Virus record (IMG/VR): IMGVR_UViG_3300021425_000035
Coordinates: 1 to 62,437 of that record
Origin: a virus
Taxonomy: Duplodnaviria; Caudoviricetes
Length of the DNA stretch: 62,437 bases
Reading direction: 5' to 3' (one strand)
How positions within the stretch are numbered: position 1 is the first letter of the stretch; each line of letters starts with the position of its first letter. The notes beneath the pieces were generated by a model that saw nothing but the letters and a program-made list of their open reading frames with translations, was not told the DNA's origin and ran no database searches. A program made the position numbers and the translations under genes. Positions 9,740 to 58,507 of this stretch are shown piece after piece.

Positions 9740-9747
9740 TATTTATA
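9740..9747 (-). promoter_or_regulatory. T4-type late promoter TATAAATA
   Basis: Exact consensus overlapping the stop of the 4040-aa gene. Confidence 0.75.
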
Positions 9748-30550: not shown

Positions 30551-30731
30551 TGTTTGCGATCTCTCTAAGAAGCTGTTTTATTTCAGATAGTTCTTCCTTC
30601 AAAGTATTTATGTCATCTTTCATAATATTAAACTCAGATGTTAATCTTTTTGTGGGACGATCCTTACTTATGATCGCCCCAGTATTAACATCTCTAACTA
30701 GGTTTGGATGACCTTCAACTGGTAAGTACAT
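30537..30731 (-). CDS. Conserved small cyanophage protein (64 aa)
   Basis: 'VEGHPNLVRD..TGAII...ELSEIKQLL' family normally follows the VrlC-like gene. Confidence 0.75.
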   Translation of the reverse strand: MYLPVEGHPNLVRDVNTGAIISKDRPTKRLTSEFNIMKDDINTLKEELSEIKQLLREIANNAKN

Positions 30732-40779: not shown

Positions 40780-43700
40780 TCAAAATGATCTTAAATATGT
40801 ATTTTGTGTGTGAGAAGCAGCTATAGTATTATCAGCTCCTCTTACCAAACCAAGTAAAGTATTCCCATTCTTCGATGTATATTCTATAATTTCTTTATCT
40901 ATAATAATTCTTCCAAATTCTGGGAATGCAAAAGAATTAGCAATAGTCATTTCTACATCTAGATCAGAAATACTATTAGTCAAAGTTGTTCCAACCTCAT
41001 TTATAGATGGGCCAGCAAAATTAACATAGTCTCCAGATAAAGCAATTGAAGAGTATTTTCTTTGTTCAAAATCAAGAATAGAAATATTTGAATATGCTGT
41101 GTCAAACTCTAGAATTGTTCCATTAACTGCAAATGCTCCAGTGTTAATAAAGGCAAGATTTTCAAAAGCAGTAATAGTATGACCAGCGTTTCCTAATGTA
41201 TAACCTTGATAGAAAGGATCTCTATCTAGACTATCATTAAGAACTGTAATAGTAGAACCATCTCTTAATGTAATTAAATTAATAGAATTATCTAAAGTGA
41301 GTACACCAGTATCTCTAGTTTGTATTTGATTTGCTAAAATAATATTTTCCGTGTAGAAATCTAAAACTCCAGTTTTATAACTAACTTCTATAGATAATGT
41401 TGTGGAATTGTGTTTTATAGAAGGATCTACTACTTCTGTTTTCAATACTTTCAGCCTTTCAGTGAAAGTATTGTGATCAGACTCTATTGATGTTATTGTC
41501 TGAACCGTGATTGTGCCAACAGGTACAACACTTACGACCTTAGGCAGATGCCTTAAATAATCACCTGCATCATGTGTTTGTGCGGTAGTTCCATCTGCTC
41601 CTCTAGTTACAGATAAAAATCTATCTGTTTTTTTCTTTTCATAATAAACAATTTCTTTACCAATCAATAATCTGCTAGAATCTGGGAATCTTCTAGTATC
41701 TGGTATGTAAACTATGTTGTCAGTTTCAGATAAAGGAGCATCCAAGAATGCGCCAATATCATTAATAGAAGCTGTATCTAGTTGAATAAATGCTTCATTA
41801 ATTTGCTTGCTAATTGTCGAAGTTATTTCTTTATCTACTGAAATAACAGTGGAAGAAGAAACGATATCAGAAGAAACATCTAAATGTCTTACAATTTCTG
41901 GAGAAGCTGTAAGAATATCACAAGAAACAATTATATCTGGCAGTAAAATATAGCACTCGCTAGTTTCTGATATTTTGTTAACCTTAGCTAATTCTTCATC
42001 TGGTTGAATTGTGCATAATAAGTCTTTTGCTACTACAGGAACGTTGCTAAAATCAATAAGAGTAAAAAGAAATGCACCAGCTGGCCCAGAAGAAATAATA
42101 CTTATGTGACTACTTGTAGTTAAAACATCAGCAACTGCTGACGGAGGTGAAATATTTAATACAGTAGTAGTATCAAATTCTCTTGATCTCCCTTTAATTA
42201 TATTGTAGCCTCTAGATACAACTACTTGAGGTGGTTCTGTATATCCATAACCACCATCAATTAAAACTATATCTACAATTTGACCACCTACAGAAATTAC
42301 TTCAGCTTTAGCTCCACCACCACTCTGGGTTCTGGGGACAAAATCAATGATAGGTGAAGTATAATATTGATATGCAGTTGGTTGCAACAATATATTATTA
42401 TTGAAAAATAGTAATAAATCTCTTCTATTCCAATTTAATTTTGTCACAGTGCCATTGACATCAACTTCTGCGGTTATACTTAGACCTTCGCCTCTAACTA
42501 TGTCATTGTAATTTGTGGCTTGTACTCGGGAGTAAATATCTTTAGGTAAGAACTCTCCAATATTATACTGCTTCGTATTTACTAGCTCAGGAATTGATAC
42601 AATTTCTCTAAATTCAGACTCACCATCAATCTTAATTAAGTCGCCAACACTTAAGTTAGAATACAGATTTGTTTTTTCTAAATAAGCATCTTTTCCAAGT
42701 TTTGATCCAAACAACCAAGATGGAACATCAACTTGTAGCTTTCTTATCCCATCATCATCTTCTACATATGAAATTGAGGATGATTTTATTCCAAATAGTA
42801 CAAAATTATCACCAGATTTTGGATTTGTGAAAGTTATATCAGAAGAATCTACTTGATAAAAAGCAGAACACAACAAGGTTAGATTTAAATCACTAGCTCC
42901 AGGAACAAATGATTTTATTTTACCAATGTTATTTCCATTTTGTGAAACTATTACATTATATCCCAAATACTTAGATAACCAAGAATATAAATCTAATAAA
43001 TTTGTAGAGCCATTTATCCTTAAATTGCCTTGTGAATAATATGCATTAGGTTCAAAATCATAAAAAGTTAAAGTTTTTGCTTTATCTCTACCATAGAATA
43101 ATAGAATAGAAACTTTTTGTAAAGTTTGCTTTCCTGACTCATCTTCATAATATTGTAAAGGAGAAGAAAATGTTATATTTGGTCCTACAATGTCGTAAGA
43201 TTTTCCAGGTATTTGCAATACGCCATCTATAAAAACTATCACATACAAAGGATCATCAATTTTAACAACAGTATTTTCTACTTCATCTAAAATTAAGAAA
43301 GGACCAGTTCTTCTATATTTTACAGTTCTGGAATCAATTGTTAATCTTCTATATGATCCAATGCTATAAATAAAACACTTTTCTCTTATTGTAATATCAT
43401 CGGTGCTATCATATAATTCGCCATGACTAATCGGAGGCTCTGTGAAAGCTATCTTATCAGCTACAGTTGGATCTTGTGATCTTATAATTGAATAAGAATT
43501 TCTAAATGGTTCATCTTCTGTGGATCTAGCATTTTGTAAAACTCCATTCAAAGCAACAATGAGTTTTTCATTTGGTAAAGTTTTTACAATAGAACCATTT
43601 TCTTCATACAAATCAAATATTCTTGTTTCGCCGTCAAATTGATCTGAAATATTTTTTATCTTTCTGATGTAAGTAGAGTTTAAAGTATTATCTTTAAACT

Positions 43701-46700
43701 TAATTGATTTGCAGTAGAATTTTTGTCCTTCTACTACTTGACCTTCAGCTATTCTTTCCCCTAGTGGAGGTTGTGCGAAGGTTATAGTATTACCTTTTAC
43801 AGTAAATGATTTTCCTGGTTCCTGTAAAACACCATCTAAAGTAATAATTAAAGAACTTTCATTGTATGGAGCATATGCAGTATTTGTCTTTTTATCCAAT
43901 AATGTAAATGTTTTTGTTCCGTAAAGAACACCACTATTTGGATCAAAATCTCCATCAAATGGGCTAGCTAAAATTAACTCTCTTGCTACGGTTTCTGACG
44001 AATCAAATGTATCAATAGCAACAGATCCAATACCTCTTTTAATATTACTATCAACAAAAGATATAATATTTTCGGTGATATATTTTCTTGTATTAACAAT
44101 AGAAATATTTTGAGGTCTTAAATTTATAAATGAGTGAGTCTCAATTTCTCTTACATCAGAAGGTATTGCAGTTTTCCCGTTGGATTCTAGAATTAACTCC
44201 CCAAATAGTTGAAATCCAGCTGGATGTGTTGTCTCTTTAATTAAATCTCTCCAAAAATCAATAGGAGTTCTAGATTTAATTACATATGAATAATCTTGAT
44301 AAAAATAAGAATCGGATAATTTTTGGGAATTTGCACTTAATTTTCCTTTTTCTGAATTAAATCTTCCAAGATTATCAAAATATGTTCTGATATCAGCCGA
44401 GAAAGAAGTTTCTAATTGTGCTACAATAGTAGCCGTTTTTGATTTAGCAAATCCTTTTATAGGAAGATTATTTCTGAATATTCCATTAATATTTTCTATC
44501 TTTAATAAGTTGCTTCCTACTCTCCAGCCATTTTTAGAAACAATAGCATCAGCAACTAATACTCCATTTTCATATTGAACTATTTTCTCCCCAGGATAAA
44601 AAGAATTATCTTCAAAATCTTTTAACACAAAAGTATTTGTTGATTTAAATATTGGTAAAGTAGAATAATCGGAATTATAACCAAAACCATTATTAATCAA
44701 TTTAATATTTTTAGGGATACCAATATTATTAGATGTGAAGAAAATCTTTACGTCAGATTCAAATATTTTTATTTCTGGATTATATGTAAATCCTTCACCT
44801 GGATTTATAATATTAACTGCTTTAATTTTGCCATTTTCGGAAATGCACTCTAACTTATAATTAAAGCCATTTCCATCTGTTATTAATGCTACTGGTTTAC
44901 TATAATTTTGACCTTGATTATTGACGACTATCGAAGACAAGTAACCAGTTGTAGTATCTATTGATGCAGTAACTGACGCTTCATATGAAGAGGTTGGCAG
45001 AATACCTTTACATACAGGAATCAAATCATAATTACTGCCAGTATTTACAATAGATAATGATTTAATTGAGCCTATTGCAAACTGAGATGTTGTATCATAT
45101 TTAATTGTTCCTGTGCCATCATATTGTGGTAAACTATTCATTGAATAAACAAATTTATTTTCAGTTGAATAAATTACAAAATTTTCTCCTGATAATGGAT
45201 CATCTATTACTTTTAATGATGATCCATCAGTATCAACATCAGCAGAAGCTTTGATGAAATAGTAATAGTTATTAAAATTCACTGGAATCTTTTGTTCATA
45301 TTCATTTGACGAAATATTTGGTCCAAATCCAAGTTTAATAGAAACAAAAGATCCTGTAGTTCCTGGTAAATTTGAACTTACATTTTTTTCTTCTGTAAAC
45401 AAATTATAATTTAAACTAGATGAAAAATCTAGGTAGGTATCGACCATTGAAAAATGGCTAGTATCAAAAGTGTACTTGTAATACTTTTGAATATCAATTA
45501 CTGGGTTAATAATAAAATCAACTTCATCCTTACTAAATTCTAGTTTATATTTTGGCTCTTCTACTGATTCAATTTTTACAAATTTACTTGCAATATTTTG
45601 ATCAAAGAAAATGCTACTTTGCAATACACGAATTGGGTTTGTTACTCCATAATCATAGGCTAAAATAAGTTCTCTTGTATTTGAATTATATGAAATAACG
45701 TATGGGGTATTTTGAGCTGTACCTAAAACACCAAAACCAGCATCAAATTTATAAGAAGTTTCGTAAAAATTAACTTTTTGACCGTTAAAGTGATCAACTG
45801 CTTTGGTATTTTTCTGCGCTCTCTCTACGGTAATTGACTTATTATCTTTATCGGCAGAAGTTACTTTAACTACTTCTTCGCCAATTTGTAAAAAGTCACC
45901 ATTTGATATATTATTTATTGAAATTAAAGAAATCTCTGTATTTTCTGCAGAAACTCCTACGTGATCTACAATGATATTTAATCTACTTGTTGATATAGAA
46001 GATGATAATCTGTTTAAATCATTGTCAGCTACAGTTAAAATATCAGATTTTCTATATCCAAAGCCTTTATTAGTTATTTCAACAAAAGAAACTCTACCAT
46101 ATCCAGCACCAAGCTCAAATACAGTTATTCTTGCTCTAGCATTACCTAAATCACCTGGCTTACCAATATTTTTTCTAGCTTTAGATGAATCTACAAATAA
46201 TAACTCAATATCATCGTATACACCTTCTCTATAGTCAGAACCACTATTTAAAAATTCAAATCTACCAATACCAGTATCTACAATTTCGCTATCGAATTTT
46301 AATTCTTGTAAGATGCACTTTTGGTAAAGCCTTTTTCTTACATAATATGTAGTTTCTGTTAAAGAATCATCTGGAAAAATATCTACATTAATTTTATCGC
46401 CTATTCCTAAATTATGAGTACCATTTGTTTCTGCGATTGCAACTTTGTCATTAAGTGTGTTTATTTGTAAGTTTTCACTTAAAGAAGTTGATTTTATAAT
46501 TTTGCTACTTGATGTATCTGAAAGAACATTACTTTTAATAATAAAGTCATTTGAAGCAAAGAAATCCCCAGAAATAAGCCTTATTTTTAGTGAGTTTTGT
46601 CTTAAAGATCCTTCTAAAACAGTTGCTGTTCCAAAAATAACTCCATCCTCTTCCCTAATAAATGATAATGTAGATCCTTTACTATAAGTTGCATTTTTGT

Positions 46701-49700
46701 CAAGTAAAATATTAACTACTTTAATCGTAGCAAACAAAGGCACATCAGTAGTGAATGTTCCATTTACATTTCTAACTACTAATCTATTATCATTAACTAC
46801 ATCGCCTATAATTTCTCCTTGAATCAAGGATGTAGTATTATCTAAAATAACTCTAAAAGAAGACGTTGGGGCAACTGCTAAATCATTTACAACTTTAACA
46901 TTCGGAGAATCTGAATCTTGCTGACCAGTAATCTCTAAGTTATCGACAATAATTTGATTCAGTAATAATCCTTCTGATTGAAATACTATATCTCCAGCAA
47001 ACAAATATGCATTTTGCTTTAGATCAATTAAGATTGCTTTATTTTGTACTGATTCTAGAGAAACAATCTCTTTTCCATTTACAGATGAAACAACAGATTT
47101 TGCGCCAAATCCTCCAGTATTATTACTATCAATAAAAACTTGAGATCCAACAGAAAAAACTTCTGTCGAATAATCGGAATATCCACCAGAAACATTTCCT
47201 TTGGTAGTATCACCAATTAAAGCTAAAGAATTAGCTCCATTAGAATCTATTGCATCATCTCTATATCTAACAACATTTTTTGGAATATCATCTTGTGATA
47301 TATTTGAATTATAGTTAGAATCTACTGGCAAAGAATAGAAATTTTTACCTATGATATATGGAAATGTTGGATTTCCTAGACCATCGATACTAATAAAATA
47401 AGCATAAGTTCCATTTGGATATTCTGGGGTAACACAAAATCTTCCGTTATTTTCATCAAGTTCTGTTTTGTTGCTATTTACAGTAGGTATCCATTCATAG
47501 TCATTCACAAAAGTACCTAATGGGTAATCTACTAGTGAAGGACCATTTTGACGGTTATTTTTTAATTGATAACCACTGCTCATTCTAACAATAGTAGAAT
47601 TGCTATTTCCTGGATCCGAAAATCCATAAGGACCATAAATTGGATTCCCGTCATAGGCAAACCCTAGAATGGGGGAGTGAGTTTTGTCTCCAGTAGATTC
47701 ATTTAAAACACTATTGATATTGTCCCCAGATCTAAATCTAAGATTTGCTGGATTAGCTACTACTCCATAGCCATCGGCAAATTTCGGATTGAAATTAGGA
47801 AATACATAAGAATTATTTGAATCTAATAATAATTTATTCTTTTTGAACCTATCTTTAACCCATTCTCCAACTTTTGCTGTGGCAAAGGCACCTGATCCAG
47901 CTGGGATAACTTCTATAATTAAGCTATTTCTAGTATAAAATCTACCACCATTTATTTTTTGACATTTTGTGATTTTTCCTTCTGGGGAAACAATTGCTTC
48001 ATACTCAGCAAAAGCTCCTTTACCTAAAGCATCAAAAATTCTAATTGTTGGTGGGGAAGAATAATATTCACCTGGATCTTCAATTTTAATACTAGTAATT
48101 TCGCCATTTGTTACTACTGGTTTTAGCTTAGCATTTCTACCAGAAGTAATTGTTATAGTTGGATTTTCTGTGTAAATATCGTCTGAAAGTAATTCTATTC
48201 TATCAACTACTTCACCTGCAAGAAAACATCTTGCTTTATTTGGTTCATTATTAACTAATACAAAAGGCGAATTTTTATAACCAACTCCTTTGGTTTCAAT
48301 ATTAAATGATAAAATAGTACCATATTTTACACAATCAAAATCTTTGTTACTGTAAGCTACAGAACCATCAATTAAAATACCAATATCTCTATTTGAAGTT
48401 TCATAAACTTCAGTAGTATTAATTGGATACTTTCTAACAAGTTTTAAAAATTTTTGATCTCCTAAATTAATTGGAGAATGTTGATTTAAAATTGAATGAT
48501 ATGGGTATCCACTTGAACAAATATAAAAATACTGATCATCTTCGTAAATTGCTGAAACATCAGCATTTAAATCTTTAATCGCATTCGAAATATCTTGACT
48601 AAGAGATGAAAATGCTTTTCTGAAATTTGTATTTAAAAACCAATCTACTCCATTAATTAGTGGATGATTACTAATGAAGCCTGATTTAGATATTTGTACT
48701 TTATCACCAGAACTAGAATAAGGACTTGGATTTGATACATTTAAATTGTATAATACACCAAGTGCAAGTAGATTTACTATACCTCCATCATACTTGCATG
48801 TAATAATATTATCAGTGTAAACATCAGTTCCTATAATATGGGTAGTATTTGGGTTTGATCTACCATTAATGATAAATTGATTTACATTCTTTTCATTAAA
48901 AGCAATAGTTTCTGAATTAACAATAATGTTACCTTTAGGTTGCCACCCTAAAGTCGAATAAACATCAATTCTATCACCAATTGTATCATTTACTGAAATA
49001 TCAGTTTTTAATTTTGTTTGTGCCGCAATATCAAAAGAACCATTAACCGATCCTGGAGATAATACCAATTCAAAAATTCCACCATTCCCCCCATAATTTA
49101 CCGCATCAACTATCGCAGATGCATATGAAGTTTCTGTTTTTTGAACAAGTTTGTTTCCAATTAATTTTTTAGGATCTCCCGATAATATTTTTACTTTAAT
49201 TGAATAATTACTTATCCAGTCAGAAGTAGAAGCTTTTAAAGTAAAGTCCTTTGGATTGTATGTTTCTGGAGTATCTTCAGCACTCTTTGAAACAATTGAG
49301 TTAAAAATAAACTTAATAGATCTATCAGTACCTTTTGCCTTATAGAAGTCACTGATATTTTTGATGAGTACTCGCTTATCTACATCACCTTTTAAATATG
49401 CTTCTGGAAAGCCTCCTAGATACTGCTGCTCAAAGCTCTTAACAAAAGCATATAAAAATAGATTGCTTACATTATATACAGTATCATTTACATAATGTGG
49501 TTCTGCTTGTGTCGTTACAAACTTAGAACTTTCATACAAATCTCCAAGTGTAGTATTTCCACTAACACCTCTAGAAACTTCTAAAAATTCTGTATCTGTT
49601 CTTTCTTTGTAAAAACAAATTTCATTTCCGATTTTAATGTATCCATTCTTCTCTGGAAATGAACTAGCATCTTCTACTATAATGCTAGTGTCAGTTTCGG

Positions 49701-49926
49701 TAATACTAGATGATAATTCAGTAAACTGATTGAGTAAATTTTTCTCGTAATAATTGATGTCACGATATTTCGTAACATTAGAAATGATATCAAGTGGTTG
49801 TCCTTGAATTTCTAATTGCTCGTAGTATTTCTCTACAAACTTGGAAAAGTTTTCGTATTCAGAAACTATAAACCCAGGTAGTTGAGATTCAATTAAGGTA
49901 GAGATATTTCTTGTCTTTGCAGCCAT
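40780..49926 (-). CDS. gp7: Baseplate wedge initiator gp7-like (3048 aa)
   Basis: 'ISTLIESQLPGFI', 'IKNISDFYKAKGT', YHYH-like 'HSPILGFAYDGNPIYGPYG', 'DSYFYQDYSYVIKS', 'HPAGFQLFG'; position between gp6 and gp8. Confidence 0.85.
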   Translation of the reverse strand: MAAKTRNISTLIESQLPGFIVSEYENFSKFVEKYYEQLEIQGQPLDIISNVTKYRDINYYEKNLLNQFTELSSSITETDTSIIVEDASSFPEKNGYIKIGNEICFYKERTDTEFLEVSRGVSGNTTLGDLYESSKFVTTQAEPHYVNDTVYNVSNLFLYAFVKSFEQQYLGGFPEAYLKGDVDKRVLIKNISDFYKAKGTDRSIKFIFNSIVSKSAEDTPETYNPKDFTLKASTSDWISNYSIKVKILSGDPKKLIGNKLVQKTETSYASAIVDAVNYGGNGGIFELVLSPGSVNGSFDIAAQTKLKTDISVNDTIGDRIDVYSTLGWQPKGNIIVNSETIAFNEKNVNQFIINGRSNPNTTHIIGTDVYTDNIITCKYDGGIVNLLALGVLYNLNVSNPSPYSSSGDKVQISKSGFISNHPLINGVDWFLNTNFRKAFSSLSQDISNAIKDLNADVSAIYEDDQYFYICSSGYPYHSILNQHSPINLGDQKFLKLVRKYPINTTEVYETSNRDIGILIDGSVAYSNKDFDCVKYGTILSFNIETKGVGYKNSPFVLVNNEPNKARCFLAGEVVDRIELLSDDIYTENPTITITSGRNAKLKPVVTNGEITSIKIEDPGEYYSSPPTIRIFDALGKGAFAEYEAIVSPEGKITKCQKINGGRFYTRNSLIIEVIPAGSGAFATAKVGEWVKDRFKKNKLLLDSNNSYVFPNFNPKFADGYGVVANPANLRFRSGDNINSVLNESTGDKTHSPILGFAYDGNPIYGPYGFSDPGNSNSTIVRMSSGYQLKNNRQNGPSLVDYPLGTFVNDYEWIPTVNSNKTELDENNGRFCVTPEYPNGTYAYFISIDGLGNPTFPYIIGKNFYSLPVDSNYNSNISQDDIPKNVVRYRDDAIDSNGANSLALIGDTTKGNVSGGYSDYSTEVFSVGSQVFIDSNNTGGFGAKSVVSSVNGKEIVSLESVQNKAILIDLKQNAYLFAGDIVFQSEGLLLNQIIVDNLEITGQQDSDSPNVKVVNDLAVAPTSSFRVILDNTTSLIQGEIIGDVVNDNRLVVRNVNGTFTTDVPLFATIKVVNILLDKNATYSKGSTLSFIREEDGVIFGTATVLEGSLRQNSLKIRLISGDFFASNDFIIKSNVLSDTSSSKIIKSTSLSENLQINTLNDKVAIAETNGTHNLGIGDKINVDIFPDDSLTETTYYVRKRLYQKCILQELKFDSEIVDTGIGRFEFLNSGSDYREGVYDDIELLFVDSSKARKNIGKPGDLGNARARITVFELGAGYGRVSFVEITNKGFGYRKSDILTVADNDLNRLSSSISTSRLNIIVDHVGVSAENTEISLISINNISNGDFLQIGEEVVKVTSADKDNKSITVERAQKNTKAVDHFNGQKVNFYETSYKFDAGFGVLGTAQNTPYVISYNSNTRELILAYDYGVTNPIRVLQSSIFFDQNIASKFVKIESVEEPKYKLEFSKDEVDFIINPVIDIQKYYKYTFDTSHFSMVDTYLDFSSSLNYNLFTEEKNVSSNLPGTTGSFVSIKLGFGPNISSNEYEQKIPVNFNNYYYFIKASADVDTDGSSLKVIDDPLSGENFVIYSTENKFVYSMNSLPQYDGTGTIKYDTTSQFAIGSIKSLSIVNTGSNYDLIPVCKGILPTSSYEASVTASIDTTTGYLSSIVVNNQGQNYSKPVALITDGNGFNYKLECISENGKIKAVNIINPGEGFTYNPEIKIFESDVKIFFTSNNIGIPKNIKLINNGFGYNSDYSTLPIFKSTNTFVLKDFEDNSFYPGEKIVQYENGVLVADAIVSKNGWRVGSNLLKIENINGIFRNNLPIKGFAKSKTATIVAQLETSFSADIRTYFDNLGRFNSEKGKLSANSQKLSDSYFYQDYSYVIKSRTPIDFWRDLIKETTHPAGFQLFGELILESNGKTAIPSDVREIETHSFINLRPQNISIVNTRKYITENIISFVDSNIKRGIGSVAIDTFDSSETVARELILASPFDGDFDPNSGVLYGTKTFTLLDKKTNTAYAPYNESSLIITLDGVLQEPGKSFTVKGNTITFAQPPLGERIAEGQVVEGQKFYCKSIKFKDNTLNSTYIRKIKNISDQFDGETRIFDLYEENGSIVKTLPNEKLIVALNGVLQNARSTEDEPFRNSYSIIRSQDPTVADKIAFTEPPISHGELYDSTDDITIREKCFIYSIGSYRRLTIDSRTVKYRRTGPFLILDEVENTVVKIDDPLYVIVFIDGVLQIPGKSYDIVGPNITFSSPLQYYEDESGKQTLQKVSILLFYGRDKAKTLTFYDFEPNAYYSQGNLRINGSTNLLDLYSWLSKYLGYNVIVSQNGNNIGKIKSFVPGASDLNLTLLCSAFYQVDSSDITFTNPKSGDNFVLFGIKSSSISYVEDDDGIRKLQVDVPSWLFGSKLGKDAYLEKTNLYSNLSVGDLIKIDGESEFREIVSIPELVNTKQYNIGEFLPKDIYSRVQATNYNDIVRGEGLSITAEVDVNGTVTKLNWNRRDLLLFFNNNILLQPTAYQYYTSPIIDFVPRTQSGGGAKAEVISVGGQIVDIVLIDGGYGYTEPPQVVVSRGYNIIKGRSREFDTTTVLNISPPSAVADVLTTSSHISIISSGPAGAFLFTLIDFSNVPVVAKDLLCTIQPDEELAKVNKISETSECYILLPDIIVSCDILTASPEIVRHLDVSSDIVSSSTVISVDKEITSTISKQINEAFIQLDTASINDIGAFLDAPLSETDNIVYIPDTRRFPDSSRLLIGKEIVYYEKKKTDRFLSVTRGADGTTAQTHDAGDYLRHLPKVVSVVPVGTITVQTITSIESDHNTFTERLKVLKTEVVDPSIKHNSTTLSIEVSYKTGVLDFYTENIILANQIQTRDTGVLTLDNSINLITLRDGSTITVLNDSLDRDPFYQGYTLGNAGHTITAFENLAFINTGAFAVNGTILEFDTAYSNISILDFEQRKYSSIALSGDYVNFAGPSINEVGTTLTNSISDLDVEMTIANSFAFPEFGRIIIDKEIIEYTSKNGNTLLGLVRGADNTIAASHTQNTYLRSF

Positions 49927-52452: not shown

Positions 52453-52599
52453 TCAGCCTTTACCTTGCCCACGATAACGCTTACGAGCACCATTACGACT
52501 CGTAGCGGCATACTTCGTGTGTTGCCCATTTCCCTGACGGGACTTCTTCGGCTTAGATTCGATCTGATTGCCACCAGTAAATGAAGGACGACGTGACAT
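52453..52599 (-). CDS. Small Arg/Lys-rich protein (48 aa, not in ORF track)
   Basis: MSRRPSFTGGNQIESKPKKSRQGNGQHTKYAATSRNGARKRYRGQGKG*; GAGG SD; own promoter and terminator. Confidence 0.8.
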   Translation of the reverse strand: MSRRPSFTGGNQIESKPKKSRQGNGQHTKYAATSRNGARKRYRGQGKG

Positions 52600-52624
52600 A
52601 AAAACCTCAGTTGATTACCCACCT

Positions 52625-52653
52625 ATTGTAGCACACTCAGCCCACTTAGACAA
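52625..52653 (-). promoter_or_regulatory. Sigma70-type promoter TTGTCT-N17-TACAAT with extended -10
   Basis: Minus strand TTGTCT aagtgggctgagtgtgc TACAAT. Confidence 0.6.
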
Positions 52654-53017
52654 CCCCCGTACCAATGTGAACATCCTCATAATAGAACGGTCCTACTAAT
52701 GGTCTGTCTGTCCCTAATAACTGTGCCTTATCACCTTGGACTGCAGGAAGCTGCCCATTGAAAAACACAGAGGTGTTCACATTAGCTACGATAATCCTGT
52801 TACCTGGCTGGCAAGGTAGAGGAATCACGTTAGTGGGCAGTGGAACCCCCTGTACGGGCTCTGGAATCGTCGTTGTGGTGTAAAACTCCACTGCCTCTCC
52901 ATTTATGAAAATATTCGGTGATACCACTGGACTACCACCTAATGGCTCAGCAGGATACGAGCACAGTACATCTGTACTTACAGTGTCTACAGTATCTGGT
53001 CCTACTAAAAATGCCAT
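52646..53017 (-). CDS. PAAR-like spike-tip protein (gp5.4-like)
   Basis: Repeated 'SPNIFING' / 'TSVFFNGQLPAVQGD' units; location upstream of gp25. Confidence 0.65.
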   Translation of the reverse strand: MAFLVGPDTVDTVSTDVLCSYPAEPLGGSPVVSPNIFINGEAVEFYTTTTIPEPVQGVPLPTNVIPLPCQPGNRIIVANVNTSVFFNGQLPAVQGDKAQLLGTDRPLVGPFYYEDVHIGTGVV

Positions 53018-53022
53018 AACTC

Positions 53023-53187
53023 TTAGTTTTCTAATTTTTTTATTCTATTCTCTACTTCATCTAAGTATTCAGTTATACTTACATGTTCCTCCCTCTCGGG
53101 GGGTCTGTACATTAATCTGAGATTATAGAGGGACGCCTCTAATCTCTCAATCCTCTCAATCAAGGAATTCAGGTCTTGGTTCGTCAA
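53023..53187 (-). CDS. Small coiled-coil protein (54 aa, TTG start, not in ORF track)
   Basis: MTNQDLNSLIERIERLEASLYNLRLMYRPPEREEHVSITEYLDEVENRIKKLEN*; GGAG SD upstream. Confidence 0.65.
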   Translation of the reverse strand: MTNQDLNSLIERIERLEASLYNLRLMYRPPEREEHVSITEYLDEVENRIKKLEN

Positions 53188-53371
53188 TTGATGTAGTCTC
53201 CTTCTTTACATTACCATTGGCTGAAATAGTCTCTACATTAATCTCTGGTTTGATACCAGCATAATAATCTCCAGCAATATTCTCAATCATATCAGCAAAT
53301 TCATTGAAGTCATCAAAGACTTGCTCCTTTAATTGACCATCTGTGGTCTTATAAGTTACTCGTTGTTTCAT
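53156..53371 (-). CDS. Hypothetical protein (71 aa)
   Basis: ORF track; first gene downstream of late-promoter variant GATAAATA at 53448-53455. Confidence 0.7.
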   Translation of the reverse strand: MKQRVTYKTTDGQLKEQVFDDFNEFADMIENIAGDYYAGIKPEINVETISANGNVKKETTSIDEPRPEFLD

Positions 53372-53509
53372 GGCGACTTTTTTGGGTAAAAATTTTCTGG
53401 GAAATTTTTTTGGAATTGAAGGATTTCACTTTGGAAATTCCTTTTAATATTTATCGGGCTCTGGGAAACGTTTATAGCTTAGAAAGAAGGTACTTTTTTG
53501 GGGGACGCT

Positions 53510-53880
53510 TATCGTTAATTATAATTAACGAACGATTACGATTAACTGTTAATTATAATACCTTTGCAATCGTAATTACTGTGTTATTCTAATTACTTTA
53601 CAATCGTATTTAATTGTTGTTAATAATAACAAATACATTTATTTACTGTTAATTAGAATTAACAACTAATTGTAATTACAAAGTATTTGTATTATTGTGT
53701 AATTTTATTTGTATAGTATTACTAATACACTGGTAATTATCAAAGTATTAGTAATATTGAATAATTGTGATTAGTTGCTAATTTTAATTACTGTGTAATC
53801 TATGTGTATTTGTATTTGTATACTTTCCTACATTTATTTGATTGTATAAAGAATAGCTAACTGTAAAAAAAGAGAAATAA
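53510..53880. other. Non-coding, extremely AT-rich block with 20-bp palindrome
   Basis: 11 of 60 G+C in line 53581; TCGTTAATTATAATTAACGA (53512-53531) is a perfect palindrome. Confidence 0.75.
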
Positions 53881-53904
53881 AAAAGGGGGCAGGATTTGCC
53901 CCCT
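53879..53904 (-). terminator. Rho-independent terminator closing the early region
   Basis: Minus strand AGGGGGCA-AATCC-TGCCCCCT followed by a T run. Confidence 0.8.
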
Positions 53905-53924
53905 GTGAGTATAGCTAACTGTGC

Positions 53925-54206
53925 TCAATATCCGCCCTCTTCGATATACTTTAGGTCTCCTACTTTCCTGCCCTTTGCTATCACCGAACCGAGGGAGAAT
54001 CCAAGGAGATCGGGAGATTTAATAATTTCAGTAAGATATACTTTATAGCGATTTGTGGCTTCGAAAAGATATGCTTTCTCGTGGTTCGATTGGAATATGA
54101 TTTCGACGAAATTACCGTCGATCTCGATGTTGTGAATTGCGCTAGATTCGTCTACAGTGAACGTCCGATAGATGGGGGCGTTTGTGATTTCGAAGGAAAC
54201 AGACAT
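53925..54206 (-). CDS. KTSC-like small protein (93 aa)
   Basis: 'ESSAIHNIEID...VEIIFQSN..KAYLF...SLGSVIAKGR' follows the KTSC pattern. Confidence 0.5.
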   Translation of the reverse strand: MSVSFEITNAPIYRTFTVDESSAIHNIEIDGNFVEIIFQSNHEKAYLFEATNRYKVYLTEIIKSPDLLGFSLGSVIAKGRKVGDLKYIEEGGY

Positions 54207-54272
54207 TTCGAGAAAAGTGTAGAGAATGGGTGGGGGGCTGTGGTGCCCCCCGTTGCTCGCTATCCTAGCAGA

Positions 54273-54569
54273 TCACAGGGCGCTGTTGCGATTCTGTGCC
54301 CACATGGCGAGGCGCTTGGTGCTAGCCTTGCTGAACACCCGATCGGTCTGGGTGATCGTGCCATCGGCATGGGTGACACGGTGACGGTTGGCAGCCTTGG
54401 CACACGCCTGCAGGGCACGGCGACCCTGGCGATCGGTCTGGGCAAGGTTCAGCAGGAGGGTGGCACGGTGCCCACCGATCACACGGGGGCGCTCGATCAG
54501 CAGACGGGCAGCGGTTTCGGCGTCACCGATCAGGGCAGCGAAACGGCTGGAGGGGATGATGGGGAGCAT
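54273..54569 (-). CDS. Early hypothetical Arg/Ala-rich protein (98 aa)
   Basis: ATG downstream of promoter TCGACA-N16-TAGGAT (54618-54645); followed by G6C/GC6 hairpin at about 54232-54251. Confidence 0.6.
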   Translation of the reverse strand: MLPIIPSSRFAALIGDAETAARLLIERPRVIGGHRATLLLNLAQTDRQGRRALQACAKAANRHRVTHADGTITQTDRVFSKASTKRLAMWAQNRNSAL

Positions 54570-54874
54570 CGGTCTGGGGCGGGGGGTGGTGGAGGTCTGT
54601 CCCCCTCGCTTGAACGTATCCTATCAGATCGGTGGGGGGTGTCGAGGGTCTGGGGTCGAAATCGGGACAGTGCCCCAGGTGGCACACGGGGTCGGGGTCG
54701 CTGGCAGTGGGGGGCGCTCGCCGTGCTAGATTGGAGGTAGACCCTATGGTTGTTGCCTATGGGTTGGCAGGGGCGGTGGCGACGGTTGGCGTCTGCAGAG
54801 CTACCCCGCTCCTCGATCGGTTGTCTCTGGAATCCTAGCACAGAAAAGGGGGGCGGTGTGCCCCCCTGGTGGGG

Positions 54875-55060
54875 TCAGATCAGGTGATCTGCCAGATCCC
54901 AGCGGTGGATCGTGAAGCCAGGGTGGCGACGCTGGCAGGTGGCGAGAGCCTCAGCAGCGGTTGCTGCCCGAACGGAGATCACCTCGGGGAAGGGGTGGCA
55001 GTTGCCTTCCTGAACGCCGATGAACAGGAAGTGGCAGGAGCGGTCGGTAGCGATGTCCAT
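54875..55060 (-). CDS. Cassette mini-protein (61 aa)
   Basis: Fills the space between two cassette elements exactly. Confidence 0.7.
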   Translation of the reverse strand: MDIATDRSCHFLFIGVQEGNCHPFPEVISVRAATAAEALATCQRRHPGFTIHRWDLADHLI

Positions 55061-55134
55061 GGTCGGGTGTCTGTGGTTGACTCTGGAATTCTATCATGGG
55101 AGGGGGGCTCTTGTGAACCCCCCCCCAGGTGGGG

Positions 55135-55383
55135 TCAGGGGCTGGGGTCGTACCCGTCCAGGATAGCCTCTACGATCTGCTCGTGAGTTTGCTGGCAGAG
55201 AATGCCTGCGATTGCGATCTCTTCAGCCCATTCCCAGGTGCCACCAGTGAGGAAGTCCAAGGGGAGAATGTAGGGGTACATCTTGTTAAACAGATCCTCG
55301 ATCTTACCCAGTTCATTGTAGAGATCCAAGGGGATCTCCCAGGCTTCGTCGATCTGCACGGTGTCGGTGAAGGCGTAGGTCAT
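55135..55383 (-). CDS. Cassette acidic mini-protein (82 aa)
   Basis: Fills the space between two cassette elements; D/E-rich. Confidence 0.72.
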   Translation of the reverse strand: MTYAFTDTVQIDEAWEIPLDLYNELGKIEDLFNKMYPYILPLDFLTGGTWEWAEEIAIAGILCQQTHEQIVEAILDGYDPSP

Positions 55384-55452
55384 GGGTGCCTGTGTGGTTG
55401 ACTCTGGAATTCTACAGGGTGGTGGGGGGTCTTGGCAACCCCCCTGGCTGGA

Positions 55453-55623
55453 TCAGTGCCGATCGCTCACGTTCCAGGTGGTGGTGGGGGCATTGGCAGG
55501 GAAGGGGAAGGGGCGACCCTCCTGGAATGCCTTACGGTTGGCAGCGGATCGTGCCTGCATTTGATCGTAGCGGGCGGTGTAGTCTGCCATGATGGCTGCG
55601 AGGTCGATCTTGGGGTTGGTCAT
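55453..55623 (-). CDS. Cassette mini-protein (56 aa, not in ORF track)
   Basis: MTNPKIDLAAIMADYTARYDQMQARSAANRKAFQEGRPFPFPANAPTTTWNVSDRH*; fills the space between two elements. Confidence 0.72.
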   Translation of the reverse strand: MTNPKIDLAAIMADYTARYDQMQARSAANRKAFQEGRPFPFPANAPTTTWNVSDRH

Positions 55624-55691
55624 GGTGCCTGTGTGGTTGACTCTGGAATTCTACAGGATGGGGGGCTGGTTGGCAACCCCCCCAGGTTGGG

Positions 55692-55937
55692 TCAGACGGC
55701 GACCCAGTAGGTGTTCACGCACACATTAGGAACTGCCTTACCGATCTCTCGCATCTCCGCCATGATCCACTGATCCTGTGGGCGAGCAGATCGCCAACCC
55801 ATCACCTGGAAGTAGCAGTCCTCCAGGGTGGCGGGGTAGGCAACGGTGCTGACGATCCTACCGTTCCGAACCATCGCCACAGCGAACGGGTAGCGTGTGG
55901 GGGACAGGATGGTCTTGAGTGGGGTGGGGTCGGTCAT
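55692..55937 (-). CDS. Cassette mini-protein (81 aa)
   Basis: Fills the space between two cassette elements. Confidence 0.7.
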   Translation of the reverse strand: MTDPTPLKTILSPTRYPFAVAMVRNGRIVSTVAYPATLEDCYFQVMGWRSARPQDQWIMAEMREIGKAVPNVCVNTYWVAV

Positions 55938-56014
55938 CTGTCGGGTGTCTGTGGTTGACTCTGGAATTCTACAGCCAGTGGGGGGCTGTTGCCAACCCCC
56001 CTGGTGTGCAGTGC

Positions 56015-56767
56015 TCAGACCGTCACAGCTTGGCTGGTGGTCGCCTTGCGATAGCCTCCGAACTGCCCAGCCTGGCGACGCTGGCGAATCGCCTTGCCCC
56101 AGTCGCTACCCTTGGGCTGGGTGCCATGCACTAGCAGGGCGAAGGGACGATCACCAAAGCAGTGGCTGTCGTCGTGATCAACCTCTAGCCCCAGGGCGTT
56201 AGCATCATCATCCGTCATCACCACTTTACTATAACGGGGGAACATTCCATCGTCGATCATGTAATCGAACTTACCACCATAGCTTGCCGTCATGTAGAAG
56301 TTAGAGGGCAATTCTTGAGTGATAAAGAATTCGAGAGATTTGCTGTAGCAGTAGAACTTAAGGTTAGGGTTCATCTGTGCAACTTTAACCCACGCTTGCA
56401 GATAGGCGAGGCTGAAGAAGTCGCCCGACTCGTGTATACGAACCAGCTTGGTATTGCGTGTCTTAAAGTGGTTCAACGCAACGCTAATCTGTTCAGCAGC
56501 GTGATCAATACCCACCTGCAGGTATTCCACAACAGTAGCCAGGTTGTTGGCTCGGTTGTAGAATGCTCCATCGTATTGCACCTCAGACGATGCAGCAAAG
56601 CATCGGAATTGCGTGTGCTCGGTGTCTTGAATAGAACGCTTGCCGTTAGCATCAACAACAGCGAAAGACTTACAGAAAAGGGCACCAGGGCAGGTCTTGC
56701 CTGCAGGCAGGTTGAAAATCAGGGTGCTGGTGCCCAGCTTGGCGTTGCCTTTGGAGAAGGTGAGCAT
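56015..56767 (-). CDS. GP88-family Cys-motif protein (250 aa from MLTFSKGNAKL)
   Basis: 'GNAKL', 'LPAGKTCPGA..C', 'CFAAS', 'RIHESGDFF', 'FYCYSKS' motifs of gene product 88 family; start placed at the ATG after the cassette core. Confidence 0.7.
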   Translation of the reverse strand: MLTFSKGNAKLGTSTLIFNLPAGKTCPGALFCKSFAVVDANGKRSIQDTEHTQFRCFAASSEVQYDGAFYNRANNLATVVEYLQVGIDHAAEQISVALNHFKTRNTKLVRIHESGDFFSLAYLQAWVKVAQMNPNLKFYCYSKSLEFFITQELPSNFYMTASYGGKFDYMIDDGMFPRYSKVVMTDDDANALGLEVDHDDSHCFGDRPFALLVHGTQPKGSDWGKAIRQRRQAGQFGGYRKATTSQAVTV

Positions 56768-56855
56768 GGCTCTGTCTGTGGTTGACTCTGGAATTCTACA
56801 GGATAGGTTGGCGGGTTGCAAGGGGCAGGATGGACACTGCCCCGATTGGCACACC

Positions 56856-57047
56856 CTATAGTTCTACATTCCAGTGGCGATCGTTTGGTATAGTAACCCA
56901 AAAGAAGTTGCGACCATTGAGTGAACCAAGGTGAACACTATTGCCTTCGATTTTATCCACAATACATTCAGGATTGTGGTCCATAAGATTAGCAAACCTA
57001 TTCTTGGCTTTGCTAGATTTAGGTGCGACAAATGCTTTGGGTTTCAT
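56856..57047 (-). CDS. Hypothetical protein (63 aa)
   Basis: MKPKAFVAPKSSKAKNRFANLMD...SLNGRNFFWV...DRHWNVEL; TATACT -10 upstream. Confidence 0.7.
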   Translation of the reverse strand: MKPKAFVAPKSSKAKNRFANLMDHNPECIVDKIEGNSVHLGSLNGRNFFWVTIPNDRHWNVEL

Positions 57048-57136
57048 GATACAATTGTGTTGACCTTTACAGTATAGCAACACCAAATCTACACTGCGAG
57101 TGATACTGTGCCACTAAAAGAAGTGGCACACACTAA

Positions 57137-57316
57137 CTAGAATGCAATCTCTTCTAGTGTAGGATGAACACCAGCACTGATTGTGTCACCAACTGCCACA
57201 ACAGTTTGCATCACTGATTCCACAGGATTGTCAGTGATAGCATCAAGAATTCTAAGGATTTCAGATCCTGTTTTACCCTGACGAAGGGTGCTAATCATCA
57301 ATTTGGTGTCAATCAT
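57137..57316 (-). CDS. Hypothetical protein (59 aa, not in ORF track)
   Basis: MIDTKLMISTLRQGKTGSEILRILDAITDNPVESVMQTVVAVGDTISAGVHPTLEEIAF*. Confidence 0.65.
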   Translation of the reverse strand: MIDTKLMISTLRQGKTGSEILRILDAITDNPVESVMQTVVAVGDTISAGVHPTLEEIAF

Positions 57317-57346
57317 GTTGGTAATTAGAATAAAGAACTGAGTTTG

Positions 57347-57459
57347 TATAAAGAATAAAACAACACTGTTTTATTCTTTATATCTTGGACTGTATATAAA
57401 GAATAGAACAACAGTTTCTATTCTTTATATTCTATACTACACTATTCTTGTGTAGTATA
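57347..57459. repeat. Three tandem perfect inverted repeats (16, 15 and 10 bp arms)
   Basis: 57347-57382, 57394-57430, 57433-57459. Confidence 0.85.
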
Positions 57460-57567
57460 CTCTATACTCTCTCCTATACTATAATCATCATAGTCATACT
57501 CTTCATTGTATTCTTTATAGTATTGTAGTTCTTGATTTACATACTCAAGAAATAGTTGATCTTCCAT
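57442..57567 (-). CDS. Acidic Tyr-rich micro-protein (41 aa, not in ORF track)
   Basis: MEDQLFLEYVNQELQYYKEYNEEYDYDDYSIGESIEYTTQE*. Confidence 0.5.
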   Translation of the reverse strand: MEDQLFLEYVNQELQYYKEYNEEYDYDDYSIGESIEYTTQE

Positions 57568-57606
57568 AAAGAATTTAATGGTTAAAGGTTAATAATAATT
57601 TATTTG

Positions 57607-57673
57607 AAAAAACTGAAAAAGTCAAGATTTGAAATAATTAAGTTTTTTGATTTCCTGACTTTTTCAGTTTTTT
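57607..57673. repeat. Perfect 18-bp inverted repeat; one arm recurs at 59031-59048
   Basis: AAAAAACTGAAAAAGTCA-N31-TGACTTTTTCAGTTTTTT. Confidence 0.85.
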
Positions 57674-57678
57674 AGATT

Positions 57679-57900
57679 TTACGAAATTCCAAACTCTTCC
57701 AAAATCTCAGAATCTGTGCCATAGTGTTCTTTGATCTCACTCACAAGTTCATCTGCTGTGTATTTGGTATAACAATCAACCAATGAATCAAAACAAAATT
57801 GTTCCATGGTCTTCATGTCCATACTATCAAGCACCCATGCAGAATACTTCTCAACAAGTTCAGCAAAATCTTCGTTAGTCATTTTCTCAGTGTCAGTCAT
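57679..57900 (-). CDS. Acidic hypothetical protein (73 aa from ATG 57900)
   Basis: 'LVEKYSAWVLDSMDMKTMEQF..D.L...Y..YTADELVSEIKEHY' recurrent cyanophage early family. Confidence 0.7.
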   Translation of the reverse strand: MTDTEKMTNEDFAELVEKYSAWVLDSMDMKTMEQFCFDSLVDCYTKYTADELVSEIKEHYGTDSEILEEFGIS

Positions 57901-58054
57901 TGGTGGGGTGGTTGACAATTTGATCTTCAATTTGATTGGCAAGTTCTTCCATGAACTCACGATCTTCATCTTGTTCATACTGAGCATTGTTACGAACAAT
58001 ACTCAACAAGAAATCAATCTGTTCGTCAGTGAAGTGATACTCTTTGAGTGTCAT
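57893..58054 (-). CDS. Acidic hypothetical protein (53 aa, not in ORF track)
   Basis: MTLKEYHFTDEQIDFLLSIVRNNAQYEQDEDREFMEELANQIEDQIVNHPTND*; overlaps both neighbours. Confidence 0.65.
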   Translation of the reverse strand: MTLKEYHFTDEQIDFLLSIVRNNAQYEQDEDREFMEELANQIEDQIVNHPTND

Positions 58055-58179
58055 TTCCGAAGTGGTGAATTGTTGTAAGATTTGAAAATTGTAACCAGGA
58101 TAAAGAGGGTGGCAACCACCCCCACAAATCCTAGCATGGTGGTGGCATCACCACCGAAGCCTAAAGTGTCAACTGTCAT
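58051..58179 (-). CDS. Single-pass membrane micro-protein (42 aa, not in ORF track)
   Basis: MTVDTLGFGGDATTMLGFVGVVATLFILVTIFKSYNNSPLRK*; ATGA overlaps on both sides. Confidence 0.65.
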   Translation of the reverse strand: MTVDTLGFGGDATTMLGFVGVVATLFILVTIFKSYNNSPLRK

Positions 58180-58346
58180 ACATCGTAACAAATGTTGGAT
58201 TTCTTCATCTCATCATACCACACCTTGTCAGATTCTGACAGTATGCAGGTGAGAGACATCATGAAGCTGGCAAACTCAGCCATCTCATTCAGCAGCGTGA
58301 GACGGTGCTCGTGGTTGCTGACGATGTTCTGGTTGAAGTAGTTCAA
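58176..58346 (-). CDS. Hypothetical protein (56 aa, TTG start, not in ORF track)
   Basis: MNYFNQNIVSNHEHRLTLLNEMAEFASFMMSLTCILSESDKVWYDEMKKSNICYDV*; AGGGGA SD; TATTCT -10 upstream. Confidence 0.55.
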   Translation of the reverse strand: MNYFNQNIVSNHEHRLTLLNEMAEFASFMMSLTCILSESDKVWYDEMKKSNICYDV

Positions 58347-58474
58347 GGTTAATCCCCTGACGACTCCCTAAGAATAACACCACCAGACCCCTCTGGAAGC
58401 CCCTCTGTGCCACCTCTAGAACTGTCTAGGTGTCATACCACTGGACACAGATTAATATACAATCGAAAGTGAAT

Positions 58475-58498
58475 AAAAAAGGGAGCATTTCTGCTCCC
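58475..58498 (-). terminator. Rho-independent terminator
   Basis: Minus strand GGGAGCA-GAAA-TGCTCCC followed by T6. Confidence 0.8.
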
Positions 58499-58507
58499 AA
58501 ATATTAT

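Follow-up and report, generated by a model that had tools for sequence, protein, structure and literature searches.

A GC-rich cassette array with host-like codon usage in a T4-like cyanomyovirus: GATC richness and missing palindromes

Results

Genes and cassettes of the GC-rich island

The virus record IMGVR_UViG_3300021425_000035 consists of one contig of 62,437 nucleotides (nt), which was analysed over its full length and is called the window here. The subject of this work is a GC-rich island of the window that carries an array of small genes, is rich in GATC and lacks GGCC, CCGG and CGCG. The window, rated 32% complete by CheckV, covers part of the genome of a T4-like cyanomyovirus with S-PM2 and Sf-FR1 among its relatives; its best DNA and protein matches are the Synechococcus myoviruses S-PM2, Sf-FR1, S-SRM01 and S-RIM32, and all of its large open reading frames (ORFs) are on the minus strand. 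In Sf-FR1 and S-PM2 (two of two annotated relatives), the counterpart of the island lies, by synteny, just beyond the baseplate wedge genes gp6 and gp25. Six minus-strand ORFs (GP88 and g2 to g6) are carried by the island, each with its own cassette; orthologues of the island genes were sought in 11 related loci (labels L003 to L011 among them). The features, read along the minus strand, are as follows.

54210..56860: GC-rich island; 59% GC (remainder of the window, 34%); host-like codons; zero GGCC, CCGG and CGCG
56768..56850, minus strand: cassette of GP88; hairpin, TTGCAA, 17 nt, TAGAAT, conserved leader
56015..56767, minus strand: GP88 ORF; 250 amino acids (aa), Pfam GP88 (PF17338); 52% GC; 4 GATC
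55938..56014, minus strand: cassette of g2; G6-loop-C6 hairpin, TTGGCA in the loop, 18 nt, TAGAAT, leader
55692..55937, minus strand: g2; ORFan of 81 aa; 5 GATC; orthologue in 0 of 11 related loci
55624..55691, minus strand: cassette of g3; TTGCCA, 17 nt, TAGAAT
55453..55623, minus strand: g3; 56 aa; S-PM2 homologue at 64% identity; 4 GATC
55384..55452, minus strand: cassette of g4; TTGCCA, 18 nt, TAGAAT
55135..55383, minus strand: g4; 82 aa; orthologues in L003, L004 and L007 at 73–79% identity; 7 GATC (28 per kb)
55061..55134, minus strand: cassette of g5; TTCACA, 18 nt, TAGAAT
54875..55060, minus strand: g5; ORFan of 61 aa; orthologue likewise in 0 of 11 related loci; 5 GATC, of which four fall in the last 12 codons
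54819..54874, minus strand: variant cassette; hairpin and T-run, then a TAGGAT −10 box
54570..54818, minus strand: ORF-free segment behind the TAGGAT cassette; DNA-level conservation upstream of g6 orthologues
54273..54569, minus strand: g6; 98 aa; widespread family of uncultured phages; 66% GC; 6 GATC
54207..54272, minus strand: variant cassette of g7; TAGGAT first, hairpin after
53925..54206, minus strand: g7; 93 aa, phrog_4357; final gene of the array; lower GC, 43%
53884..53904, minus strand: terminator-like hairpin and T-run ending the array; z −2.5

The cassettes share one architecture. Before each ORF stand, in this order, a stop codon, CCWGGGGGG, a loop, CCCCCC, a short spacer, TAGAAT and the leader TCCAGAGTCAACCACAG, which ends in ATG, while three further cassettes use TAGGAT. 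A 22-nt core is present in five exact copies in the window, all within the island (none in 100 shuffles). The promoter scan returned 14 sites, compared with 4.5 ± 1.8 in shuffles, and its five top minus-strand sites are cassettes; the sigma-70-like boxes at these five (spacer 17–18 nt) score 9–10 of 12 and the TAGGAT variant 9 of 12. A G/C hairpin is predicted in all eight intergenic stretches, with the −35 box inside the loop in four. In the closest relative (L003) the cassette version has TATACT and a leader sharing GTCAACCACAG, and in S-PM2 it has TAGGAT or TATAAT and a different leader.

Gene content between GP88 and g6 varies between relatives, g2 and g5 being unique to the window. Metagenome contigs break at the cassettes, and a few of them link cassette to cassette (55096 to 55948, and 55654 back to 55061); as each such joint is seen in a single contig, with 33–36 nt on the shorter side and 88% likeness, it is a hint only. 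By its sequence the segment is a cassette array of the promoter(early)-stem-loop (PeSL) type of T4-type phages, situated in a hyperplastic region and holding six ORFs that are each placed behind a G/C hairpin and a sigma-70-like promoter, with promoter and terminator activity being predicted.

Codon usage of the island

The relative synonymous codon usage of the island correlates with that of marine Synechococcus genes at r = 0.87, and with that of the phage late genes at r = −0.47. Third codon positions have a GC content of 0.73 in the island and 0.72 in host genes, against 0.17 in late genes; for the relative use of ATC the three values are 2.29, 2.19 and 0.36. Host DNA was that of Synechococcus/Cyanobium loci reached via a phage psbD protein (19 of the 80 returned loci were used), and 11 Synechococcus loci, cut into 814 stretches of 2651 nt, gave the host windows.

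GC islands (800 nt or longer, with a GC content of 52% or higher) stand at the matching place in other phages as well: the window, the contigs G001 and G002 and S-RIM32 have one each, and S-PM2 has two adjacent ones. P-RSM6, a phage of low-GC Prochlorococcus, has no such island.

GATC and CCWGG under codon-aware nulls

The original prediction, made from the sequence of the window, was that GATC and CCWGG are strongly enriched and that GGCC, CCGG and CGCG are absent in this segment, which was read as a methylation-patterned stretch that evades restriction. The GATC count is exact: 37 sites lie in 54008–56850, 33 of them up to 55.9 kb, and CGATCG occurs at 54340, 54430, 54814 and 55460 as given. 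Expectations for the 37 sites are 10.2 from base composition (a 3.6-fold excess), 13.4 under a first-order Markov model (Markov-1) and 29.3 under a second-order one (Markov-2). Two codon-aware nulls with 2000 shuffles each were applied to the six ORFs, namely a synonymous shuffle that keeps the proteins and the island codon usage, and a codon permutation. The ORFs hold 31 GATC, against 17.9 ± 2.6 (synonymous) and 12.1 ± 2.9 (permutation), and no shuffle reached 31.

The enrichment thus survives the codon-aware null, yet much of it is the level of host-like DNA. Host windows hold 19.7 ± 5.6 GATC with a maximum of 37, and 0.4% of them reach the 35 sites of the island; observed/expected ratios are 1.4–2.3 in the 11 Synechococcus loci and 2.7–3.6 in three Cyanobium loci. 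Relative to the synonymous shuffle, hosts stand at 1.25–1.51 (nine of nine loci), the island at 1.73 and the phage late genes at 1.07. The GATC richness of the island is therefore mainly due to host-type coding, in which ATC is the main Ile codon, GAT makes up half of Asp and the codon junctions NNG-ATC and GAT-CNN show a host-like bias.

Of the 35 island sites, 31 are within ORFs in codon-bound frames, and their spacing does not differ from random placement (P = 0.09–0.12). Conservation in orthologues extends to 33 of 80 site-pairs, where the average conservation of 4-mers predicts 27.8, so that a conservation check proposed with the original prediction returned nothing above background. The methylation-gated pac site, switch or decoy that had been suggested finds no support. 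CGATCG makes up 4 of the 35 GATC (11%), close to the 8.5% in host DNA, and TGATCA only 2 of the 35. A pattern of the HIP1 (highly iterated palindrome 1) type was ruled out, as GCGATCGC has no copy in the window and the CGATCG share of GATC is the same as in host DNA.

For CCWGG, the predicted count of 19 was confirmed; five of these sites (54865, 55125, 55443, 55682 and 56000) sit at the conserved base of a cassette hairpin and so are not independent. In the six ORFs 13 CCWGG are found, against 12.1 (synonymous) and 9.5 (permutation), and host windows contain 13.1 ± 5.7, with 15% of them reaching 19 (host observed/expected, 1.3–2.2). The proposed CCWGG enrichment therefore vanishes once codons are respected. 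A Dcm-type pattern was likewise rejected, on the absence of both a CCWGG excess and a C5 methylase.

What host coding does not cover is found in the small ORFs. GATC density is uneven, at 5.3 per kb in GP88 and 20–28 per kb in g2 to g6. For g2 to g6, 15.3 ± 2.0 GATC are expected from a shuffle with their own codons, 13.8 ± 2.7 from recoding with host usage and about 18 with host junction bias, and host coding windows of the same length hold 7.7 ± 3.2 with a maximum of 18 (171 windows). Dipeptides capable of encoding GATC number 9.1 per 100 codons in the g2 to g6 proteins, against 4.7 in host proteins. The closest relative, L003, also has an excess (19 against 11.6, P = 0.001), and ratios are 1.0–1.3 in L007, L011, L006, S-PM2 and S-RIM32. 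The GATC surplus of the five small ORFs is real and limited to the lineage, and carries no sign of a site-specific function.

Palindromes missing from the island and from the phage lineage

GGCC, CCGG and CGCG each number zero in 54008–56850, as predicted, and the 12 GGCC present elsewhere in the window all fall in the late genes, at 8390–42083. In the island, 18.7 of each would be expected from base composition, 19.6 GGCC, 15.8 CCGG and 9.2 CGCG under Markov-1, and 16.8, 6.4 and 6.7, respectively, under Markov-2; under the codon-aware nulls, the six ORFs alone should contain 11.7 GGCC, 5.5–6.9 CCGG and 6.8–9.2 CGCG. Host DNA carries these sites at about 4–9 per kb each, and every one of the 814 host windows holds at least nine of the three together.

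The absence is genuine, but as a property of the island it did not hold, since CCGG and CGCG number zero in all 62437 bases. The ten large late ORFs have none of either, where the synonymous shuffle expects 37.4 CCGG and 7.9 CGCG. Palindromes were then counted in seven cyanomyovirus genomes and contigs (the window, S-PM2, Sf-FR1, G001, G002, S-RIM32 and P-RSM6). None of the seven, although they reach 196 kb in length, has more than one CCGG, where Markov-1 predicts 38–190; CGCG is absent from five of the seven, and GGCC numbers 9–49 where 67–258 are expected. Among 6-mers, for which G001 was left out, GCATGC, GTCGAC and GACGTC are absent in six of six, and CTCGAG and CACGTG in five of six. GTGCAC is also absent from most of the cyanomyovirus genomes examined, and some avoidance is phage-specific: CTAG numbers 32 against 587 in S-RIM32, TTCGAA and AGTACT are absent in Sf-FR1, and GCGC is absent in G001, G002 and P-RSM6.

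The islands mirror the spectrum of their own genomes. S-PM2 tolerates CGCG, with 53 sites genome-wide and 12 in its island, and G001 and G002 lack GCGC in both; the island has thus been subject to the constraint that acts on the remainder of its genome, and its lack of GGCC, CCGG and CGCG is part of a purge that extends over the phage lineage as a whole. Three codons from which the avoided sites would be built are under-used in the island relative to the host, CCG (0.13 against 1.07), GCG (0.38 against 0.83) and CGG (0.60 against 1.11). We infer that the purge is restriction avoidance. The suggestion that the segment evades restriction is accordingly upheld in that the island is short of sites that its composition and codons would give, but the avoidance belongs to the genome and not to the segment.

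Methylases in hosts and phages

The methylation reading had assumed that cyanobacteria methylate GATC and CGATCG. This does not apply to the host group: in the genus to which Synechococcus MIT S9451 belongs, taken as the host genus and sampled with 41 genomes, the D12 (Dam) family occurs in one, the C5 family (PF00145) in none and the N4/N6 family (PF01555) in five, and C5 is found in 15 of the 151 genomes of the host family. The available text of Elhai 2015 (PMC4390886) places DmtA and HIP1 in cyanobacteria other than picocyanobacteria. With Dam and C5 enzymes nearly absent from the host genus, no copy of GCGATCGC and a host-like CGATCG share, the term 'methylation-patterned' was not borne out for the segment.

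A search for Dam- or Dcm-like methylases, which had been proposed as a check, gave a split answer. A Dam-family gene is present in all four complete cyanomyovirus genomes examined; none was found in three partial contigs or in the window, itself 32% complete. Five related phages gave no match to the C5 or N4/N6 families, and PF00145 is also absent from the window. Judging from the family membership of these genes, the phage DNA may carry N6-methyladenine at GATC, genome-wide rather than in the island only. In the S-PM2 record, a second Dam-family match at 94131–94831 is split over two frames (profile positions 1–59 and 57–242), and may be a frameshifted or two-part gene.

Island proteins and surroundings

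The GP88 ORF matches the PF17338 profile at E = 2.4e-40 (139 bits, curated cut-off 24.4). Its AlphaFold model has a mean predicted local distance difference test (pLDDT) of 84, and neither Foldseek (nothing at E up to 0.001) nor a PDB sequence search (0 matches) returned a relative. VIA-align placed 21 rows at the top with weak Z of 5.3–7.9, all of which we take to be radical S-adenosylmethionine (radical-SAM) enzymes, such as spore photoproduct lyase, QueE and viperin. Cys 26, 32 and 56 of GP88 are invariant across 20 sequences, a motif other than the usual CX3CX2C.

The g6 family comprises 125 clusters, none of which carries a host name except one 4.6-kb contig of a metagenome-assembled genome (MAG), and among phage isolates g6 is found in Sf-FR1 only. 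Its predicted fold (pLDDT 88) has no match in PDB at E up to 0.001. A PHROGs search with the seven island proteins returned families of unknown function or no match. The 45-nt leader of g6 is near-identical in three phages. Upstream of g6, the C-rich ORF-free segment at 54570–54818 is better conserved than the adjoining gene: L011 matches it at 92% over 300 nt and L003 at 80% over 172 nt, in both cases immediately before the g6 orthologue. No fold signal (z −0.2 for 54570–54825) and no Rfam match was found for this segment, and an Rfam scan of 53500–57500 gave only two sub-threshold matches, at E = 0.15 and 0.28.

Elsewhere in the window, four giant minus-strand ORFs occupy the structural region (9743–21865, 40780–49926, 30731–38785 and 21872–28765; 4040, 3048, 2684 and 2297 aa, respectively), and the contig start (1–525) is a second short stretch with at least 50% GC. 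Among the 24 public sequencing runs listed as matching the stretch, all stored as contigs and none of them an RNA run, the top one is a seawater metagenome. Several freshwater or estuary metagenomes (X6, X8, X11 and others) share 15–31% of the sampled words of 52500–58500; contigs of X6, the only such run that was aligned, cover mainly the AT-rich flanks.

Discussion

A probable account by host coding and lineage-wide purge

The observations are probably best explained by a hyperplastic array of a T4-like cyanomyovirus, in which PeSL-type cassettes precede ORFs whose host coding accounts for most of the GATC, CCWGG stands at its codon-level expectation and the missing palindromes reflect a lineage-wide purge. 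In such an array, host RNA polymerase would read the island ORFs early, as in PeSLs, each cassette hairpin would stop read-through, and host codon usage would be kept so that island genes could be translated by host transfer RNAs (tRNAs) alone; the purge is upheld at 60% GC through the under-use of CCG, GCG and CGG. Early expression of the island ORFs is thus a prediction from their promoters.

Host coding of the first genes may have been maintained by selection. In the available text of Limor-Waisberg 2011 (PMC3152331) it is argued that cyanomyovirus genomes remain AT-rich, the tRNAs that they encode being a means of dealing with hosts of high GC, and that early expression relies on unmodified host machinery; it is from these arguments, together with the pattern in which the islands occur, that selection is inferred. 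An AT-rich phage would then keep one block in the codon dialect of its host, behind host-type promoters, and the testable idea is that the first-expressed genes have to be translated at a stage when phage tRNAs are not yet present. A literature search, short of most subscription journals, returned no paper on a host-coded GC island in cyanomyoviruses, on a PeSL array combined with host codon usage, or on avoidance of CCGG or CGCG in cyanomyoviruses.

Several points weigh against this account. The early timing is read from the promoter consensus. High GC is not universal, as the orthologues in Sf-FR1, L005 and L006 have 44–53% GC. The five ORFs g2 to g6 hold 27 GATC in 1149 nt, above the host level, and CTAG in the island is not host-like (observed/expected 0.7, against 0.05–0.35 in hosts). 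The sampled hosts have few of the methylases expected to accompany restriction systems against the avoided sites. Finally, marine Synechococcus served as the host comparison, and the own host of this uncultured phage may differ.

Alternative explanations

The island could instead have been acquired rather recently from a GC-rich donor of host-like composition, which might be the host, a phage of high GC content or a plasmid; the base composition of the island would then be an unselected fossil under amelioration. Its codon usage and GATC context are host-like, the more distant orthologues are lower in GC as amelioration predicts, and GP88 relatives are present in GC-rich actinophages. However, no host homologue was found: the GP88 patterns have no relative in genome contigs, and the MAG contig is the only named host among the g6 clusters. 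Moreover, the array is syntenic in relatives with protein identities of only 60–88%, several of which nonetheless keep 57–60% GC, and it lacks the three palindromes that no host window is without (minimum of nine). For want of named host relatives, with synteny at this divergence and with sites of every host window missing, the island is not a fresh host import, and import in the broader form is unlikely.

Slightly less likely is selection for GATC as such in the small ORFs, with a phage Dam marking a dense array so as to time early transcription or to tell replicated from incoming DNA. In its favour, a Dam-family gene occurs in each of the four complete cyanomyovirus genomes, the 27 GATC of g2 to g6 exceed the 13.8–15.3 expected with no shuffle reaching 27, L003 shares the excess, and a GATC adjoins the TAGGAT box in two cassettes. 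On the other side, the sites are nearly all coding and spaced as at random, their conservation is at background, and four of the five other relatives have ratios that are host-like or lower; L003 retains neither of the two GATC that adjoin a promoter, and the window, at its partial completeness, has no methylase. A combined form, in which a translation-ready immediate-early module was selected for host codons and freedom from palindromes while the extra GATC of its five small ORFs serve the phage Dam as a target array, marking incoming versus replicated genomes or shutting the cassettes off, we hold doubtful to the same degree.

Still weaker is the possibility that the missing palindromes are a self-mark, the phage shredding host DNA with nucleases for sites that its own genome avoids. 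Host DNA does carry the sites at high density where the phages have none or few, and matching host methylases are rare in the sampled genomes. Against it, C5 methylases are present in 15 of the 151 host-family genomes, no nuclease of this kind was seen, though none was searched for, and each phage avoids many different 4- and 6-mers in a set that varies between phages, which better fits exposure to many host restriction systems. Such a self-mark is quite improbable.

That the island marks a pac-like packaging start or terminal redundancy is the least credible of all: the available text of Puxty 2015 (PMC4503421) describes 2–3-fold read density 'immediately downstream' of the S-PM2 ORFanage, taken as terminal redundancy, and the S-PM2 GC islands, at 16.0–16.6 kb and 21.3–25.0 kb, are not far from there, but this text gives no coordinates for the site, a 57% GC stretch within a 38% GC genome could gain depth through GC bias alone, the metagenome data covering the window are contigs that cannot show molecule ends, and nothing in the island sequence resembles a spaced non-coding GATC cluster.

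The reading by host coding and lineage-wide purge carries a caution, in that motif enrichment measured against base composition may mislead in a compositional island; here most of the signal is a host genome signature. The purge itself is strong, though the host genus is largely without the matching methylase families.

Comparison with known systems

Clusters of GATC are known at E. coli oriC and P1 pac. The island resembles these in its high local GATC density and in the Dam-family methylase of related phages, and differs in that its GATC are coding, codon-bound, not regularly spaced and not conserved above background. Avoidance of palindromes and restriction sites is a general phenomenon in phage genomes, and here too palindromes fall far below the codon-aware expectation genome-wide, with an avoided set that depends on the phage; unlike the usual case, the avoidance is held within a 60% GC segment by codon choice, and matching host methylases are scarce in the sampled genomes.

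A second likeness is to the high-GC picocyanobacteria of Elhai 2015 (PMC4390886), whose DNA, in the available text, is likewise GATC-rich without HIP1 and without DmtA, and in many of which TGATCA is the top hexamer. The island departs from picocyanobacterial DNA in being part of a phage, in its low share of TGATCA and in a GATC density in the five small ORFs of about three times that of the host.

The closest system is that of the PeSLs of T4-type phages (RB49/phi1, nt-1/KVP40 and PST/T4), in which a sigma-70-like promoter and a polyG-loop-polyC hairpin are likewise coupled, with possible overlap between the hairpin and the −35 box, and which are repeated upstream of ORFans in hyperplastic regions whose content between copies varies among close relatives. 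In RB49/phi1 the promoters are strong, as described in the available text of Arbiol 2010 (PMC2839356); PeSL cassettes are also treated in Comeau 2014 (PMC4122927), as far as its available text goes, and according to that of Puxty 2015 (PMC4503421) a search of the neighbouring S-PM2 ORFanage for PeSLs turned up few. The promoter, terminator and mini-circle activity of PeSLs may extend to the island cassettes. The island differs from known PeSLs in its cyanobacterial host, in its −10 boxes TAGAAT and TAGGAT, in lacking an AT-rich upstream part and a Shine-Dalgarno sequence, and in flanking ORFs that are GC-rich and host-coded within an AT-rich genome. For this last trait a parallel exists in the leading regions of conjugative plasmids, described as adapted for translation in the available text of a preprint (bioRxiv 10.1101/2025.04.03.647016): there too, for plasmids rather than for a phage, the idea is that genes expressed first from an incoming element are tuned to the translation of the recipient.

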